NCBI GenBank assembly: GCA_963931495.1
Contig: OZ007020.1
Location: 600,001-632,000, forward strand
Direction of reading: 5' to 3'
DNA length: 32,000 bases
DNA from: an uncultured Alphaproteobacteria bacterium
GTDB lineage: Bacteria; Pseudomonadota; Alphaproteobacteria; Rs-D84
Shown: positions 6,988-24,845 of the stretch, piece by piece
Position numbering within the stretch: position 1 is the first letter of the stretch
Layout of the letters: each line of letters begins with the position of its first letter
Notes under the pieces: model-generated
Told to the model about the DNA's origin: nothing
Database searches by the model: none
What the model saw: the letters and a program-made list of their open reading frames with translations, nothing else
Translations under genes and position numbers: made by a program

Positions 6988-8268
6988 CTATATTGGTAAA
7001 ACAATTCGTACTTTTAATCCACCCAGGTCACTGTTTTCCAAAAATAACTGGCCACCATGATTTTCAATGGCGGTTTGGGCAATAGACAGCCCCAGGCCAG
7101 TACCGCCGGTTTTGTCACTGCGTGCGTCGTCCAATCGTACAAATGGGCGCAGTGCATCGCGCTTTTTATCGTTTGGAATTCCAGGGCCGTCATCTTCAAT
7201 TATAATTTCTATTTGATCAGTGGTGTCTTTTTCCGTGATGCGTATTGTTTTATTGGCATATCGTGCGGCATTTTCAATGATGTTGCCAAACGCACGTGCC
7301 AGCGCCATCGGACGCGCATAAAATTGTGCCGGTTCGTCTGGGAAATCTGTTTCAATGTTTTTATCTGGGGCCGCGTCACGCGCCAGACGTATTAACATCG
7401 CGGGCAATTCTGTTGCTTGTTCAATTTCAGGCATTTCGCCACGCGCAAAAGACAGGTATCCGTTCACCATTTCTGTCATTCTGTCAATGTCGCGCAGCAA
7501 ATCTTGTTTTGTTGCCCCATCTGTCTCAACCGCCAACCGCATGCGGGTCAGTGGCGCTTTCAGGTCATGACTGACCGCGTTCAGCATATCACTGCGTGTG
7601 CGATTATAACGATTCAAGCGTTCTTTCATTGTAATCATTGCGGCGGCCGCTTCGCGGATTTCTTTGGAACCGCTGGGTTCAAATCCGGGTGCGTCCAGCC
7701 CACGACCAAAGCGACTGGCGGCCTTGGCAATTCGGCGTATGCTGCGCGTGTGCATGATAATGAACGGCGTAATTAGTATTGATACAATCAAGATAGAGCC
7801 AATCAACCATATAATAAATACTTCTGTACTGGTGGAATAAATGCGGTACAGCGATGTGCCAAATGTCGCAATCTGATTATCTTTGGTTGGTACGTCAACG
7901 AATACCAAGCGTTTGGCTTTATCAATATATATCTGGGCCGGACGCTTTAACCGACCGGACAGTTCGGTCGCCAATAACCCAGCTTCACGGGAAGAATTGT
8001 TGTTTTTGCTGGGGCGATTAAGTTTCGGGTTTACAGATATGTTTATGCCCATGTCGCGTGCCATTGTTTGCGCGGTTTGGATATCGCCATTGTCCATAAA
8101 ATTCATCATTGTGGTGATTTCAACCGCCAAACTGCGCGCCAGTGTCGCATGAACGCGCTTCCAATGGTTACCAAAAAACGCATTGGCAATTATAACCTCT
8201 GCCACTATCAGGGGTATCAGTATCATTAAAATTGTACGCCATAAAAAACTGCGTGGTGTCAATCTCAT
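6988..8268 (-). CDS. EnvZ-like sensor histidine kinase (2 TM + HAMP + HisKA + HATPase)
   Basis: H-box VSHDLKAPLTRMRL, N-box NIIENAARYA, and G-boxes DDGPGIP and GTGLGLSIA. There are two hydrophobic segments. The ATG at 8268 lies 1 nt after the regulator stop; the ORF-track start at 8310 would overlap the regulator by 41 nt. Confidence 0.85.
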   Translation of the reverse strand: MRLTPRSFLWRTILMILIPLIVAEVIIANAFFGNHWKRVHATLARSLAVEITTMMNFMDNGDIQTAQTMARDMGINISVNPKLNRPSKNNNSSREAGLLATELSGRLKRPAQIYIDKAKRLVFVDVPTKDNQIATFGTSLYRIYSTSTEVFIIWLIGSILIVSILITPFIIMHTRSIRRIAKAASRFGRGLDAPGFEPSGSKEIREAAAAMITMKERLNRYNRTRSDMLNAVSHDLKAPLTRMRLAVETDGATKQDLLRDIDRMTEMVNGYLSFARGEMPEIEQATELPAMLIRLARDAAPDKNIETDFPDEPAQFYARPMALARAFGNIIENAARYANKTIRITEKDTTDQIEIIIEDDGPGIPNDKKRDALRPFVRLDDARSDKTGGTGLGLSIAQTAIENHGGQLFLENSDLGGLKVRIVLPI

Positions 8269-8269
8269 A

Positions 8270-8935
8270 TTAATCCTGTTTTGTTGCGTTTGCGGGTGTG
8301 GATGTGTCAATTAATTTGTATCCATGTCCACGAACGGTAATAATATCTATGTTTGATAATACAATATTTAATTTGTTACGCAAGCGTTTTGCAACCATCG
8401 GTGCCGCCGGCGCAATATTGCCAACCGGATGGGTTAATTTTTTCAGTAATTTTTTTTCTTCCCCAGACAAGGCCAATAATTTTGGTTGCTGGTTTGCAGC
8501 ATGTGTATCAACAATAAAAAATTCGTTATCTGTATAAATCATGCCGCCAGGCATGCGAACGTTTGAAGTTTTGGTCGTTTTAATGATGTTGTTCAGCCGC
8601 AGAACCAGTTCGCGTAACTGGAATGGTTTCGCCAAATAATCATTTGCACCACCCGCCAGTCCGTCAATCGTGTTTTCTGGACCCGTCATCGCCGTCAGCA
8701 TAATAACCGGCGTCGTGTCACCATGTGTGCGCATCTGTTTCAAAAATGTTAAGCCATCCATTCCACCCATCATGCGGTCCAGCACAATGGCATCAATACT
8801 GGTGCGGGATAATGTCGCGGTTCCTGATTCTGCGTCGTTGGCCGTGATTACATTAAATCCTTCGTTACGTAATCCGCGCGCCAGTGTGTTGCGCAAAACA
8901 TCGTCATCGTCAATGATTAAAACAGTTCTGTTCAT
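8270..8935 (-). CDS. OmpR-family response regulator (receiver + winged helix)
   Basis: Acidic pocket IIDDDD, phospho-acceptor IVLDRMMGGMDG, and the MLTA and YLAKPF motifs. C-terminal wing TVRGHGYKLI. Confidence 0.9.
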   Translation of the reverse strand: MNRTVLIIDDDDVLRNTLARGLRNEGFNVITANDAESGTATLSRTSIDAIVLDRMMGGMDGLTFLKQMRTHGDTTPVIMLTAMTGPENTIDGLAGGANDYLAKPFQLRELVLRLNNIIKTTKTSNVRMPGGMIYTDNEFFIVDTHAANQQPKLLALSGEEKKLLKKLTHPVGNIAPAAPMVAKRLRNKLNIVLSNIDIITVRGHGYKLIDTSTPANATKQD

Positions 8936-8981: not shown

Positions 8982-9908
8982 TTATTTTTTCAATGGTTCA
9001 ACCGCATATTCGCCCGGCTGGATTGTCATCATGGCGTTGTTTGCGCCCATGACATCATCTTCGCCAGTAACCGCCGCACGAAATTGCATGCCACCGGTTG
9101 TGAATTCTGTTTTGAATAATGCGTATCCGGTGCCGCCACCTGTTGTTGGACCCTGCATCCCCAGGGAATAATAGCCCCCGATAATGCCATAGTCCAAATC
9201 AATATAATCAACACTGACCATTAATGAAACATTGCTTAATCCATCGCTGGTCATGTTGCACGTGAATTCACGATTGGACAAAGTGGCCTGGGAATTAACA
9301 GGTACAACAATGTCCATGATTGTTGGTTCGCACTGACGATCAATGCCATTTACCAAAAATTCATATGTCATACCAACAGTGGCCTTGGACAATCCGGTTG
9401 ATAAATTAACCTGGGATATTGTTGCCTTGGGTATTTTAACCAGGGCATTTGCAATACCACTGCGTACCGGGAAAGATATTCCAGATTGCAAACAGTCACG
9501 TGAAAACGGGTCGGCTTCACATATATACAACCGTGAATGTGCGTTAACCATGAACATATTTGCCAAACTGTTAAATAAAAATGTCCGGGTTATACGGTCG
9601 TTTAACCGTGTGCATCCGAAATTACGGCATATAATCATGGGGCGATTTGCGAACATTACCCCCGGATGCATTTCGGATTCCATCTGGCGTGCCATTTCAA
9701 TGTTGTTGTCGTAATCCAGACTGTCTGCACGATTCATGAATTCTGTTTCCGGAATAAAATTCGGATCATCAGGATATGCATAATAAGATTGTACCGGTGT
9801 TTCCGTGTATATCGTTTGGAAATTGTCATATACAATTTCGTCTGTTGCCGCATTCGCGTTAAGCGCAACCAAACATGCAAAAACAGCCGTTAAAATAAAT
9901 CTTGCCAT
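8982..9908 (-). CDS. secreted hypothetical protein (308 aa)
   Basis: Sec signal MARFILTAVFACLVALNANA/ATDE, with 7 Cys in the mature part and a Gly-rich C-terminal region (GPTTGGGTGYALF). No family recognised. Confidence 0.6.
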   Translation of the reverse strand: MARFILTAVFACLVALNANAATDEIVYDNFQTIYTETPVQSYYAYPDDPNFIPETEFMNRADSLDYDNNIEMARQMESEMHPGVMFANRPMIICRNFGCTRLNDRITRTFLFNSLANMFMVNAHSRLYICEADPFSRDCLQSGISFPVRSGIANALVKIPKATISQVNLSTGLSKATVGMTYEFLVNGIDRQCEPTIMDIVVPVNSQATLSNREFTCNMTSDGLSNVSLMVSVDYIDLDYGIIGGYYSLGMQGPTTGGGTGYALFKTEFTTGGMQFRAAVTGEDDVMGANNAMMTIQPGEYAVEPLKK

Positions 9909-22327: not shown

Positions 22328-22343
22328 TCGCATCGCCGTTAAC

Positions 22344-22371
22344 AAAAAATCCCGCAGTTGCGGGATTTTTT
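22344..22371. terminator. bidirectional terminator shared by dnaK (+) and ORF 22370-23698 (-)
   Basis: AAAAAATCCCGC-AGTT-GCGGGATTTTTT. The T-run overlaps the TAA stop (22370-22372) of the convergent gene. Confidence 0.75.
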
Positions 22372-23698
22372 ACATTGAATAAATTTTAATGTCACCCAGG
22401 TTAAAACAACCGTATTGGTCGCAAAAATTTGTGCCGCCATCAATGTAACATTCTTGTTCTGTTTTTGCACCAGCAGCAGATGTTGAACCCGCCGGACACG
22501 GGGTTTCTATGCCATTGGGGCAATAATATCCGGCCTTGCAATCGCGGTAATGCGGAACCAATACGCGTTGCAGTTCATCCGTGAACATAAATGTATCGTC
22601 GGGATAGTATTTGCTGGTTGCGCATGATGTTTTTTTTGTGTCCACAATAAAGCAGTCGTAATGTGTAAAAACTTTACCATGTTTATACCAAGTTTTTGGT
22701 AATGCTTTGACGGTACGTTCGGGCGCGTCGGAGTTATGTTTAACATTGAATGATACGTCGGCTTTGGTTGAAATATCGCCGCCGTTGTATTCTTGAAGAT
22801 ACCATATTTGGATATCATGTATTTCGTATTGTGCGTACAGATTTTTTTCGTCGTATGAACGCAAACTCATTTGATCAAATTCGCCAGATGTACTTATTAC
22901 AAGATTCACATCAGATGCATCGTCTGAGCTGGAATAATAGCCCAAGAATTTATAATATTCTGTGGATGGCTGGTTATATTTAGACGGCATATTGGATTGG
23001 CCATCTATGCCATTATCCCAAACCAATGTTATTGTTTGGTCAGAATATGTTTTTGGTAAATTTTCCGTATATGGATTATTATGTTTTAATGTAATTTTGT
23101 ATTCATTCGGTATGCAGCGATCGTCATGACCGTTGTTTGTACTGTTGGGCGCGGTTGAACCAGAACCAAAGAATTCCAAATCTTTATCATTTCCGTGATA
23201 TCCGTCGCGACATTTGTAACAGCCTTTTTCCGTGTTGTCCCAATAATATCCAGATTGGCACACCAGTCGCCATGGGCAATTGTCCTGTGTGTTACCATAT
23301 GCGTTCAGCAAATCGTCATCAAATGAATATTTTGTTGAATTATTTGGTGATTTTGGCGTACTGCAAGTATGGCTGCACATTGTTAAATCATGCAGCCCCG
23401 CTGATCCGGTACCTGCGGGTGGCAAGTATGTCCCAGGTTCGCACTGTAAGCACGAAAAGTTTTTTTGATCATATGAACATCCGGGGGCGCATTTGAATCC
23501 CACACTGCATGTGACAGACGGGTCATGCAATTCATTGCCACAATACAAATAACAAACTTCTGTGTTGGGGGGCCATGTGTCTGGCAGTAATGTTTCTGGA
23601 TCATCAGCACCCGCCGCAGCAAGCGCAGATTGCATTGCTGGTAATGTTGTGCATATCAGACAGAATGTATACGATATTATATTTTTTTTGATGTTCAT
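22370..23698 (-). CDS. exported cysteine-rich repeat protein (442 aa): N- and C-terminal Cys-rich modules flanking two Listeria-Bacteroides-type repeat-like units
   Basis: Signal peptide MNIKKNIISYTFCLICTTLPAMQSALA/AAG, with 22 Cys in the mature protein. Motifs: CLQCEPGTYLPPAGTGSAGLHDLTMCSHTC, CQSGYYWDNTEKGCYKCRDGYHG and CKAGYYCPNGIETPCPAGSTSAAGAKTEQEC. The middle region reads YKITL...YYKFLGYYSS...NLYAQY. Confidence 0.7.
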   Translation of the reverse strand: MNIKKNIISYTFCLICTTLPAMQSALAAAGADDPETLLPDTWPPNTEVCYLYCGNELHDPSVTCSVGFKCAPGCSYDQKNFSCLQCEPGTYLPPAGTGSAGLHDLTMCSHTCSTPKSPNNSTKYSFDDDLLNAYGNTQDNCPWRLVCQSGYYWDNTEKGCYKCRDGYHGNDKDLEFFGSGSTAPNSTNNGHDDRCIPNEYKITLKHNNPYTENLPKTYSDQTITLVWDNGIDGQSNMPSKYNQPSTEYYKFLGYYSSSDDASDVNLVISTSGEFDQMSLRSYDEKNLYAQYEIHDIQIWYLQEYNGGDISTKADVSFNVKHNSDAPERTVKALPKTWYKHGKVFTHYDCFIVDTKKTSCATSKYYPDDTFMFTDELQRVLVPHYRDCKAGYYCPNGIETPCPAGSTSAAGAKTEQECYIDGGTNFCDQYGCFNLGDIKIYSM

Positions 23699-23709
23699 GA
23701 GAATCTAAA

Positions 23710-24165
23710 TCAATGTTGTTTTTCTTGGTTGATTGTCCATCCATTTTGGATAAACCATAAACTGTCAGCAGGTATTTTAGATGCTTCGCCGGGGCGAAAA
23801 TCAAAATTGCCGTGTCCGCGAATTTTGGGTGACATGTTTATTATTGGTTCCAACTGTAAATGGCGCAGGCTGGTGATGTTGTTGTACATCATACGACGCC
23901 ATGAACCTGTGGCGTGCAGGTAAATTGTTTCTGTGCCAGGGTGTGACATATAATAGTCTAATATATCACTGGGGCGAATTGTGCCGTCACTGTTCATATC
24001 ATATACAGTTTGTGTGTTGTTAATATCAAACTGTATGGTGATTTCAGATGGTGCCGGTGCCCATGTTATTTCAGGGTCACAAGATGTTACCAGCCCTGCC
24101 CCGGCAATACCCAGTGCGGGTAATAATGTTTTTATTTTGTATGGTATAATTTGTTGAAACTTCAT
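23710..24165 (-). CDS. lipoprotein, paralog 2 (151 aa)
   Basis: MKFQQIIPYKIKTLLPALGIAGAGLVTSC (lipobox VTSC). The C-terminus GHGNFDFRPGEASKIPADSLWFIQNGWTINQEKQH is shared with the upstream paralog. The ATG at 24165 lies 5 nt after the upstream stop. Confidence 0.65.
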   Translation of the reverse strand: MKFQQIIPYKIKTLLPALGIAGAGLVTSCDPEITWAPAPSEITIQFDINNTQTVYDMNSDGTIRPSDILDYYMSHPGTETIYLHATGSWRRMMYNNITSLRHLQLEPIINMSPKIRGHGNFDFRPGEASKIPADSLWFIQNGWTINQEKQH

Positions 24166-24170
24166 GTCTG

Positions 24171-24614
24171 TTACCGTTGTTTTTGGTTGTTTATTGCCCA
24201 CCCATTTTGCACAATCCATGCACTGTCGGATGGTACTTTTGACGCTTCGCCGGGGCGAAAGTTAAAATTGCCATTCCCATAAATTTTTGGTGAATAATTT
24301 TTTGCTGGTTCAAGAACGTTTGTACGTAAATTATGTATATCGTCGCTGAATAACGTGTTATAGTTTCCAGATGCAACAATATAAACTGTGTCTGTATAAT
24401 CATAATCGGCGTATGAATATACCATATCCATAAATTCTTGATTGCCGTCGTTATATATGGAATTCGTTCCACCCGGCAGTATCAGTTGGATGCTGCGTTG
24501 CGGAACGGTTAACGGTTCATTTTTTTCACACGACGTGGTTAATCCACATCCGATTAACCCGAATATTGGGATGATATGTTTCAATTTATATGGCGTAATT
24601 TGTTTGAATGACAT
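24171..24614 (-). CDS. lipoprotein, paralog 1 (147 aa)
   Basis: MSFKQITPYKLKHIIPIFGLIGCGLTTSC (lipobox-like TTSC). C-terminus GNGNFNFRPGEASKVPSDSAWIVQNGWAINNQKQR. The ATG at 24614 is preceded by AGGGGA; the ORF-track start at 24650 is a TTG. Confidence 0.65.
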   Translation of the reverse strand: MSFKQITPYKLKHIIPIFGLIGCGLTTSCEKNEPLTVPQRSIQLILPGGTNSIYNDGNQEFMDMVYSYADYDYTDTVYIVASGNYNTLFSDDIHNLRTNVLEPAKNYSPKIYGNGNFNFRPGEASKVPSDSAWIVQNGWAINNQKQR

Positions 24615-24662
24615 ATGACCTGTTCCCCTTTGTCTTGTTTTATTTTTCAAGGATATAAAAAA

Positions 24663-24781
24663 CTGCCGAATCTAAACGGAGGTTTATATTCGGCACAAAT
24701 GGATAAATAAAAATGGCGGAATATCGGGTGTTTTTTTTTCAGTTAATGTAAATAAAAAAAACCTCCGTTTAGATTCGGCAG
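24663..24781 (-). promoter_or_regulatory. 119-nt palindromic leader element (22-bp arms, ~75-nt AT-rich interior) with flanking A/T runs; attenuator/terminator-like
   Basis: CTGCCGAATCTAAACGGAGGTT (24663-24684) is the exact reverse complement of AACCTCCGTTTAGATTCGGCAG (24760-24781). A T6 run follows the hairpin on both strands. An inner imperfect hairpin pairs ATATTCCGC with GCCGAATAT. The element lies between the promoter at 24805-24833 and the start codon at 24614. Confidence 0.55.
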
Positions 24782-24804
24782 GCTTTTTTGTTGTCTATGC
24801 ACTG

Positions 24805-24833
24805 ATTATATTGGCTTTTTAATCCATTGGCAA
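24805..24833 (-). promoter_or_regulatory. near-consensus sigma70 promoter for the lipoprotein/Cys-rich operon
   Basis: Minus strand reads TTGCCA (24833-24828), a 17-nt spacer, then TATAAT (24810-24805). It starts 13 nt after the pfk stop codon. Confidence 0.5.
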
Positions 24834-24845
24834 GAATTTTTTCGT

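Follow-up and report, generated by a model that had tools for sequence, protein, structure and literature searches.

The chlamydial proteins OmcA and OmcB bring together a lipoprotein and a cysteine-rich envelope protein, and OmcB has been reported as an adhesin. Proteins with Flg_new domains (PF09479, the InlB B-repeat family) are enriched in host-associated gut microbes, are typically found at the surface or extracellularly and are regarded as adhesin-like (PMC9723798), and for the InlB B repeat a beta-grasp-like fold is known, in which a groove may accept a ligand (PMC8900821). Cysteine modules of the Ephrin_rec_like (PF07699) and tumour necrosis factor receptor (TNFR) kinds, as in ELAPOR1, the Chlamydomonas mastigoneme protein Mst1 and DR5, belong to families that are mostly eukaryotic. 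Here we describe a locus that recalls all three. It lies in a stretch of 32,000 nucleotides (hereafter the window; contig OZ007020.1, positions 600,001 to 632,000) from an uncultured alphaproteobacterium of Rs-D84, the order of Ca. Enterousia and a lineage of gut bacteria with genomes of less than 1 Mbp and without respiration or standard transporters, for which dependence on partner cells has been proposed (PMC12306168). Between dnaK and pfk the window holds a cassette of three genes encoding two paralogous predicted lipoproteins, LipoA and LipoB, and a cysteine-rich exported protein, the Cys-rich protein. This cassette is quite possibly a self-contained, co-expressed envelope module presenting an adhesin-like protein in a gut alphaproteobacterium of reduced genome.

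All three genes are on the minus strand (coordinates are window positions): lipoA at 24171-24614 (147 aa, stop codon 24171-24173), lipoB at 23710-24165 (151 aa, stop codon 23710-23712) and the Cys-rich gene at 22370-23698 (442 aa, TAA stop 22370-22372). The first-pass annotation of this DNA had described a tight three-gene cluster, and the open reading frame (ORF) coordinates agree with it, giving gaps of 5 nt between lipoA and lipoB and of 11 nt between lipoB and the Cys-rich gene; such gaps suggest translational coupling. It had also assigned an N-terminal export signal to each protein, and we recovered lipobox-type signals on LipoA and LipoB and a signal peptide on the Cys-rich protein. The mechanically predicted ORFs reach further upstream, to TTG 24650 for lipoA and ATG 24219 for lipoB, but an alignment with 19 homologues favours the shorter starts, which yield an N-terminus of the form M-x-F-K-x-I-x-P-Y-K. 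In public metagenome gene calls lipoB is a 169-aa protein starting at 24219 and overlapping lipoA, whereas the family alignment favours the 151-aa form from 24165. Unaltered copies of all three proteins occur in numerous gut metagenome assemblies (42 index blocks). None of them matched an enzyme, transporter, secretion, defence or phage family in Pfam, NCBIfam, PADLOC or PHROGs, in keeping with the earlier impression that no enzyme, transporter or secretion-system motif is recognisable.

The best reading of the Cys-rich protein, from alignments and a structural model, is a signal peptide (aa 1-27; 23618-23698), an N-terminal cysteine-rich region (aa 48-197; 23108-23557), two tandem divergent Flg_new domains of the InlB B-repeat type with a putative beta-grasp-like fold (aa 198-293 and 294-386; 22541-23107) and a C-terminal cysteine-rich segment (aa 387-442; 22373-22540), all encoded on the minus strand. 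The signal peptide would be cleaved after A-L-A, and one of the same type aligned across 30 family members. The protein has 24 cysteines, 22 of them in the mature part; 14 fall in the N-terminal region, which has invariant or near-invariant cysteines and resembles TNFR/ephrin-receptor-like modules. An exhaustive phmmer search retrieved a family of 95 cluster representatives, of which 33 have E values under 1e-10; members are mostly about 400 aa long and align over their full length, and many of the weaker hits cover only residues ~380-437. The latter correspond to the best-conserved part of the family, the C-terminal segment (CKAGYYCPNG..CPAGSTS..C..FCDQYGCFNL in the window protein), for which the 30-sequence alignment gave the consensus CPAGYYC..CPAG(S/T)TS..C..GTKFCD..GCF.LP and invariant residues C387, G390, C393, C401, P402, G404, T406 and C417. 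Cysteine positions are kept across these 30 members at identities of 25-38%. A word-index search with the Cys-rich protein returned its own cluster only.

The assignment of the two central domains rests on distant members of the family (P-numbers below designate Cys-rich family proteins and L-numbers designate loci). The window protein itself has no match to Flg_new at E <= 1 (gathering threshold 27 bits), but P0047 (47.4 bits) and P0076 (37.3 bits) carry this domain above the Pfam threshold. An hhalign comparison of the family with P0047 gave a probability of 100% (E 1.7e-43) over the full length, with the Flg_new domain of P0047 aligned to window protein residues ~200-290, and by profile the two central domains appear to be homologous to this threshold-passing domain. 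The AlphaFold2 (AF2) model built on the family alignment had a mean predicted local distance difference test (pLDDT) score of 79, with values of 80-98 in the two domains, 85-98 over most of residues 140-430 and below 50 at residues 1-46. Its weak Protein Data Bank (PDB) matches include tandem ubiquitin-like domains; the InlB B repeat, the prototype of Flg_new, is beta-grasp-like (PMC8900821). Foldseek against BFVD returned gut-phage 'tail protein' and 'Internalin B' models (E 4e-5 to 5e-3). The window protein nevertheless differs from known Flg_new/InlB B-repeat adhesins: it has no direct Pfam match, its domains are set between TNFR/ephrin-like cysteine modules, it lacks leucine-rich repeat, GW, LPXTG and type IX secretion system sorting parts, and it is paired with dedicated lipoproteins.

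The cysteine modules share with Ephrin_rec_like and TNFR modules the C..C..G.Y spacing and the CPxGxYC..CPxG(S/T)TS motifs. However, the matches of the family to these domains lie under the threshold or close to it. For Ephrin_rec_like (gathering threshold 23.1 bits) the window protein gave no match; the best family member reached E 3.9e-5, and more distant relatives scored 17.8-18.1 bits, under the cut-off. Weak hits were obtained for Ephrin_rec_like in 13 of 30 members, for TNFR_ELAPOR1 in six and for Flg_new in two, and the family profile matched Mst1, ELAPOR1 and TNFR chains weakly (E 0.04-0.9). The resemblance of the modules to these mostly eukaryotic families may be convergent or very distant. 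A single match was found on a viral contig, in a giant-virus metagenome-assembled genome (MAG) from IMG/VR (L039, 6001-6159), where one cysteine-module stretch is 40% identical over ~55 aa; it fits the eukaryote-like flavour of the modules. A phage origin of the cassette was rejected, with no PHROGs match, no lipoprotein relatives on viral contigs and this single cysteine-module match, and a defence system was rejected in the absence of any PADLOC match.

LipoA and LipoB share 44% identity (E 2e-42) and are paralogues. Each begins with a basic stretch, a hydrophobic core and a lipobox cysteine, namely VTSC (Cys29) in LipoB and LIGC (Cys23) and TTSC (Cys29) in LipoA, and a cysteine in a lipobox-like context (pattern [LVI][ASTVI][GAS]C) is present in 21 of 21 family members, pointing to lipidation at this conserved residue. 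The mature domain comprises 115-140 residues and has no cysteine other than the one predicted to be lipidated, Cys23 of LipoA falling within the signal peptide. The C-terminal motif SPK..G[RK]G[DN]F.F..GEASKVP.DSLW.V.NGWTIN is much better kept than the remainder. Its G[RK]G[DN]F core reads RGD in 11 of the 21 homologues; the window copies read GNGNF and GHGNF, and RGD was accordingly rejected as a meaningful motif at this locus. No match in Pfam, NCBIfam or PDB was obtained for LipoA, LipoB or 19 further homologues, either singly or as a profile, and we consider that LipoA and LipoB represent a new family of predicted lipoproteins without Pfam or PDB relatives. The matches of the structural model of the lipoprotein to PDB entries (APOBEC, DegV and others, E >= 0.06) were dismissed as meaningless. 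The first-pass annotation had allowed that the three proteins might fall into well-characterised, unrelated families; the lipoproteins match nothing, and the Cys-rich protein belongs to an unnamed family of adhesin-type domain kinds. Word-index searches with LipoA and with a chimeric alignment of lipoprotein and Cys-rich sequences returned their own cluster only, and a genome scan with the alignment of the two paralogues found nothing.

The same order of genes recurs in related bacteria. A genome scan for Cys-rich relatives with a six-sequence alignment and a metagenome scan with the lipoprotein alignment were used to collect loci. Among the ~400-aa members of the Cys-rich family with upstream DNA present, eight of eight have at least one lipoprotein gene directly upstream, at no fewer than five different genomic locations. 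The arrangement of two lipoprotein genes followed by the Cys-rich gene was found in L010 (the nearest genome in the species-representative collection, an 'uncultured Alphaproteobacteria' MAG), L019, L020, L041 and L042/43, and one to three lipoprotein genes precede the Cys-rich gene in L025-L029, L034, L035 and L038. Listed by individual Cys-rich family proteins, two lipoproteins accompany P0007 (beside PBP1A) and P0010, and one accompanies each of P0009, P0012 and P0017; L023 combines one lipoprotein with a divergent 32-Cys protein, and P0004 belongs to a decayed copy after groESL. The metagenome scan gave 16 lipoprotein loci; of the 13 that include some downstream sequence, nine continue, behind one to three lipoprotein genes, directly into an ORF for a Cys-family or related cysteine-rich protein. 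The neighbours of the cassette vary (dnaK/pfk, PBP1A, groESL, fba..TolB and pth/OMP/polA, OMP denoting an outer-membrane protein gene), and the cassette is mobile among loci. The first-pass annotation had asked whether the genes are conserved together in related genomes, and this is the case, lipoprotein genes and then a Cys-rich partner recurring at several unrelated positions behind the same promoter. It had further asked whether a lipoprotein pair always accompanies a Cys-rich partner: the pairing recurs, but the number of lipoproteins ranges from one to three and some partners stand alone. Judging from these sequence comparisons, the three genes are linked; they travel together across related gut bacteria and therefore probably act together at the envelope.

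Several of these loci have features of their own. In L021 (2265-3902) and L022 a decayed cassette lies straight after groES-groEL, with a truncated lipoprotein gene whose product matches only profile positions 63-148 and a Cys-rich gene split into two overlapping ORFs. In L023 (5138-7981), L026, L027, L028 and L034, the lipoprotein genes are preceded by the gene for an exported protein of ~950 aa with ~40 cysteines and no Pfam match (52-56% identity among loci), of which no homologue was found in the window. In relatives of this type, genes for a Pom-like porin (PF17251) and a DUF3078 protein lie divergently upstream, and the downstream side holds pth, a gene for an OMP beta-barrel protein and polA. 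At loci of the fba...TolB type (L018 1655-2562, L041 4222-5106, L042 6317-7198), two conserved small genes stand 3' of the Cys-rich gene. By eye, the first encodes a cysteine-rich lipoprotein of ~127 aa with an LAGC lipobox, and the second a protein of ~127 aa with a signal peptide and two hydrophobic helices, resembling VirB2/TrbC-type pilins. In L031 (849-1511) the place of the Cys-rich gene behind two lipoprotein genes is taken by an ORF that by eye is serine-recombinase-like, which hints at a mobile context for some copies.

The promoter, the long structured leader and the terminator common with dnaK and overlapping the last stop codon, all reported in the first-pass annotation, were found again by computation. 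The promoter (24805-24833, minus strand) is of the sigma-70 type, with a -35 box TTGCCA (24833-24828), a 17-nt spacer and a -10 box TATAAT (24810-24805), and matches 11 of 12 consensus positions. Promoter-like sites are not in excess in the region (6 found vs 10.7 expected), and the same TTGCCA-17-TATAAT is repeated in L010 (8634-8662), directly after the dnaK terminator. Upstream of the cassette L019 has TTGCCT-17-TATAAT (4808) and L021 a TTGCAA variant, so the promoter is kept although the left-hand neighbours vary (pfk, dnaK, PBP1A, groEL). A further promoter-like site (23703-23676) was rejected as the start of the Cys-rich gene, since its -10 box falls within the ORF. At the other end, the bidirectional intrinsic terminator (22341-22371, both strands), an A-tract, GC stem and U-tract of -17.4 kcal/mol, also serves the dnaK end and overlaps the TAA stop of the Cys-rich gene (22370-22372). 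It was absent from the list of a simple scanner but was seen in the sequence, inverted-repeat and folding analyses; the simple scanner found no minus-strand terminator-like sites inside the three genes.

The 5' leader (24615-24804, minus strand; ~185 nt) carries a GGGGA Shine-Dalgarno sequence ahead of the lipoA ATG. It folds far more strongly than shuffled sequence (minimum free energy -51.2 kcal/mol, z = -5.58) because of a 34-nt inverted repeat (arm 1 24754-24787, arm 2 24657-24690), each arm of which also forms a small hairpin followed by a U run; the arm-1 hairpin has -13 kcal/mol and a U8 run. No further copies of this inverted repeat were found within the window. In the window, L010 (-34 kcal/mol), L041, L042/43 and L034 a strong hairpin and U run lie 35-65 nt ahead of the first start codon, and L021 has a similar hairpin and U run just 3' of the promoter. 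The L021 leader (2150-2300) shares with the window the hairpin loop GAAUCYAAA on a different stem, its arm 2 begins with a matching change, and both leaders have the identical 12-mer TTCCGCCATTTT between the arms; the L021 leader continues straight into the truncated lipoprotein gene. A conserved block, GCCCGATTGGCCRCCATGCGAC, is common to the leaders of L041 and L042. L041 (1422-1875), L042 (3992-4414) and L034 (7672-8000) have a strong TTGACA-type promoter and a leader of ~300 nt with the conserved block GCCCGATTGGCCRCCATGCGAC...GTCGTAATGGGGGG, with the terminator-like hairpin and U run immediately ahead of the first lipoprotein gene; such a leader could be a cis-regulatory RNA or a separate small RNA gene. 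In the window, as in four other cassette lineages, a strong hairpin and U run separate the promoter from the first start codon, a feature shared with intrinsic-terminator attenuators and riboswitch platforms; we found, however, neither an Rfam family nor a leader peptide, nor a conserved core of aptamer type, and Rfam searches with the leaders and the terminator gave only sub-threshold chance matches. The few sequences available suggest that the leader is a regulatory or stabilising element.

The window and L010 carry the entire cassette, from promoter to Cys-rich gene, at the same dnaK-pfk site in inverted orientation (window 22328-24845 vs L010 8598-11008). A site-specific invertible switch was rejected, because the orientation does not vary among the nine strain contigs of the window species and no repeats are shared by the cassette boundaries. 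Between window and L010 the cassette proteins are 34-47% identical and the flanking proteins 57-97%. Orthologues (LipoA 47%, LipoB 45%) are closer than cross-paralogues (39-41%), and the duplication that gave rise to lipoA and lipoB therefore predates the split between window and L010. Within the window species the region 22370-24614 was compared with L002 and L004-L009. In five strains, the cassette ORFs are intact and nearly invariant, with 0-1 single-nucleotide polymorphism (SNP) in the 2229-nt cassette though 8.4 kb of flanks differ by 0.33-0.43% from the window (Poisson P <= 0.0016 for each of the five, which are not independent of one another). By contrast, another strain (L008/L009) has 14 cassette SNPs, 8 of them nonsynonymous, and 2 across 1772 nt of flanking DNA (Fisher P = 0.01), and five of the nonsynonymous changes fall within residues 190-365 of the Cys-rich protein. 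In this small sample the cassette and its flanks thus have separate histories, as would be expected of a locus subject to exchange or to selective sweeps.

Elsewhere the window carries genes of housekeeping character, namely thyA, tig, rpsI, rplM, argS, a two-component pair, ruvB, exbBD, secA, tadA, rsmD, the L25 gene, dnaK, pfk, a LysM protein gene and gdh; no dnaJ was recognised among the window ORFs examined. Outside the cassette, the only other obviously envelope- or signalling-related genes are those for a histidine kinase and response regulator (6988-8935), the regulator having a receiver domain as its sole Pfam match, and for an OMP beta-barrel/Surface_Ag_2-like protein (926-1621). Pfam gave no match for a 308-aa ORF (8982-9908) or for several others of 137-271 aa.

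We return to the reading given at the outset, which is favoured because of the adhesin-type domains, the fast and decoupled evolution of the cassette and the lifestyle proposed for the lineage. The sigma-70-type promoter owned by the cassette would drive a single transcript, whose expression the leader, with its terminator-like hairpin, may gate or stabilise. LipoA and LipoB would be exported by Sec, lipidated and inserted into a membrane, for which the outer membrane is the likeliest candidate. The 442-aa protein would also be exported by Sec, its 22 mature cysteines oxidised to about 11 intradomain disulfides, and would fold with TNFR/ephrin-receptor-like modules flanking the two divergent Flg_new domains, a combination of domains as in adhesin-like proteins of gut microbes. 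The lipoprotein or lipoproteins would then hold or present this non-lipidated protein at the envelope, where its variable N-terminal and middle parts may bind the surface of a partner, be it a microbe, a protist or host material.

A number of observations weigh against this reading. The Cys-rich protein has a Sec signal alone, for which the default location in a diderm is the periplasm, and no outer-membrane export or secretion component was found near the cassette. It has no match of its own in Pfam, NCBIfam, PADLOC or PHROGs and reaches no Pfam threshold, and the PDB neighbours of its model (tandem ubiquitin-like domains, TNFR/DR5, Eph receptor, ELAPOR1 and mastigoneme) are below significance. 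The AF2 model of the lipoprotein, from a two-sequence alignment, shows an alpha/beta fold of low confidence (pLDDT 51.8). The partnership of lipoprotein and Cys-rich protein is not universal: the genes of the 520-630-aa Cys-family relatives found in Ca. Enterousia MAGs stand apart from any lipoprotein gene, and a Cys-rich partner is missing at four lipoprotein loci, one of them adjoining a Bacteroidota-looking gene and another continuing into a recombinase-like ORF. Finally, the first leader hairpin in the window could double as the terminator of pfk.

The Sec signal, together with the lack of adjacent export machinery, is equally what would be expected if the Cys-rich protein and the lipoproteins formed a periplasmic or inner-leaflet scaffold, that is, a structural or stress-buffering layer of the envelope comparable to that of OmcA and OmcB. 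The operon does recall omcA-omcB in placing lipoprotein genes beside the gene of a Sec-exported, cysteine-rich envelope protein of 400-550 aa, and genes for Pom-like porins, named after the Protochlamydia outer membrane protein, adjoin the cassette in L023 and L034. However, no sequence match to the chlamydial cysteine-rich outer-membrane proteins in Pfam was found in the three proteins, 30 Cys-family members or 21 lipoprotein homologues. Unlike the chlamydial proteins, the window lipoproteins are not cysteine-rich, and since their mature forms would have the lipidated cysteine alone, disulfide cross-linking to the partner is improbable. The even cysteine count and the TNFR-like pattern of the window protein point to disulfides within domains, and peptidoglycan-related genes are nearby (the LysM protein in the window, PBP1A in L019), which is a further difference from OmcA/OmcB. 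Proteins with Flg_new domains are typically extracellular or located at the surface (PMC9723798), and fast divergence relative to the flanks fits an exposed protein better. We consider a scaffold unlikely. Slightly more doubtful is a role of the lipoproteins as dedicated export or maturation factors, such as a holdase or an outer-membrane helper releasing a soluble factor, and not as anchors. The lipoprotein genes, one to three in number, always stand ahead of the Cys-rich gene, the motif G[RK]G[DN]F..GEASKVP.DSLW.V.NGWT is far better kept than the rest of the lipoprotein, as for a docking or working surface, and the C-terminal ~55 aa are the best-kept part of the Cys-rich family; yet this C-terminus is conserved also in relatives without a lipoprotein neighbour, and the lipoproteins are small (about 115-140 mature residues), with no similarity to secretins, usher-type proteins, Slam-type proteins or chaperones.

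Small lipoproteins beside a secreted protein are a common immunity arrangement, and the variable copy number of the lipoproteins and the mobility of the cassette among loci could be read in the same sense, the Cys-rich protein being a secreted toxin or bacteriocin and the lipoproteins its immunity proteins. Against this, no toxin, enzyme, pore-forming or defence domain was found in Pfam, NCBIfam, PADLOC or PHROGs, the confident parts of the model show putative beta-grasp and cysteine-module domains only, the lipoprotein genes precede the putative toxin gene instead of following it, and lipoproteins also occur without a partner; we regard this explanation as very improbable. That the three genes are chance neighbours or decaying accessory DNA is strongly disfavoured. 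The truncated lipoprotein gene and split Cys-rich ORF of L021/22 would fit decay, but order and orientation recur in at least five unrelated contexts behind the same promoter, the five further strains have intact and nearly invariant ORFs, and the cysteine positions are kept in 30 members at the low identities given above. A bolder form of the presentation of the Cys-rich protein by its lipoproteins would make the cassette the core of a docking device specific to this lineage, by which an obligately partner-dependent bacterium of sub-1-Mb genome attaches to its partner cell, whether bacterium, protist or host epithelium, and in which lipoproteins display a eukaryote-like protein of TNFR/ephrin-type cysteine modules without a classical secretion system, under the control of an attenuator RNA, and which spreads or sweeps between strains as a unit. 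This is a speculative proposal, and we think it improbable in full.

The kinds of domain in the large protein, and adhesin-like envelope proteins of gut microbes in general, were already known; the lipoprotein family is new, and no description of such a three-part cassette with its own promoter and leader was found in the literature searched. Bacteria of Rs-D84/Ca. Enterousia are widespread in human and animal guts and are proposed to live off partner cells. The cassette, with its own promoter and terminator, is a concrete, conserved and apparently selected candidate for contact with such a partner, its Cys-rich family comprises at least 95 sequence clusters, all of them unannotated, and the recurring leader hairpin could be a new regulatory element. 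If the Cys-rich protein is indeed a surface adhesin, it would offer a way to identify the partner of this uncultured lineage, with the recombinant protein as bait or stain; if it is not, the cassette would still define a well-delimited family of envelope proteins without an assigned function.

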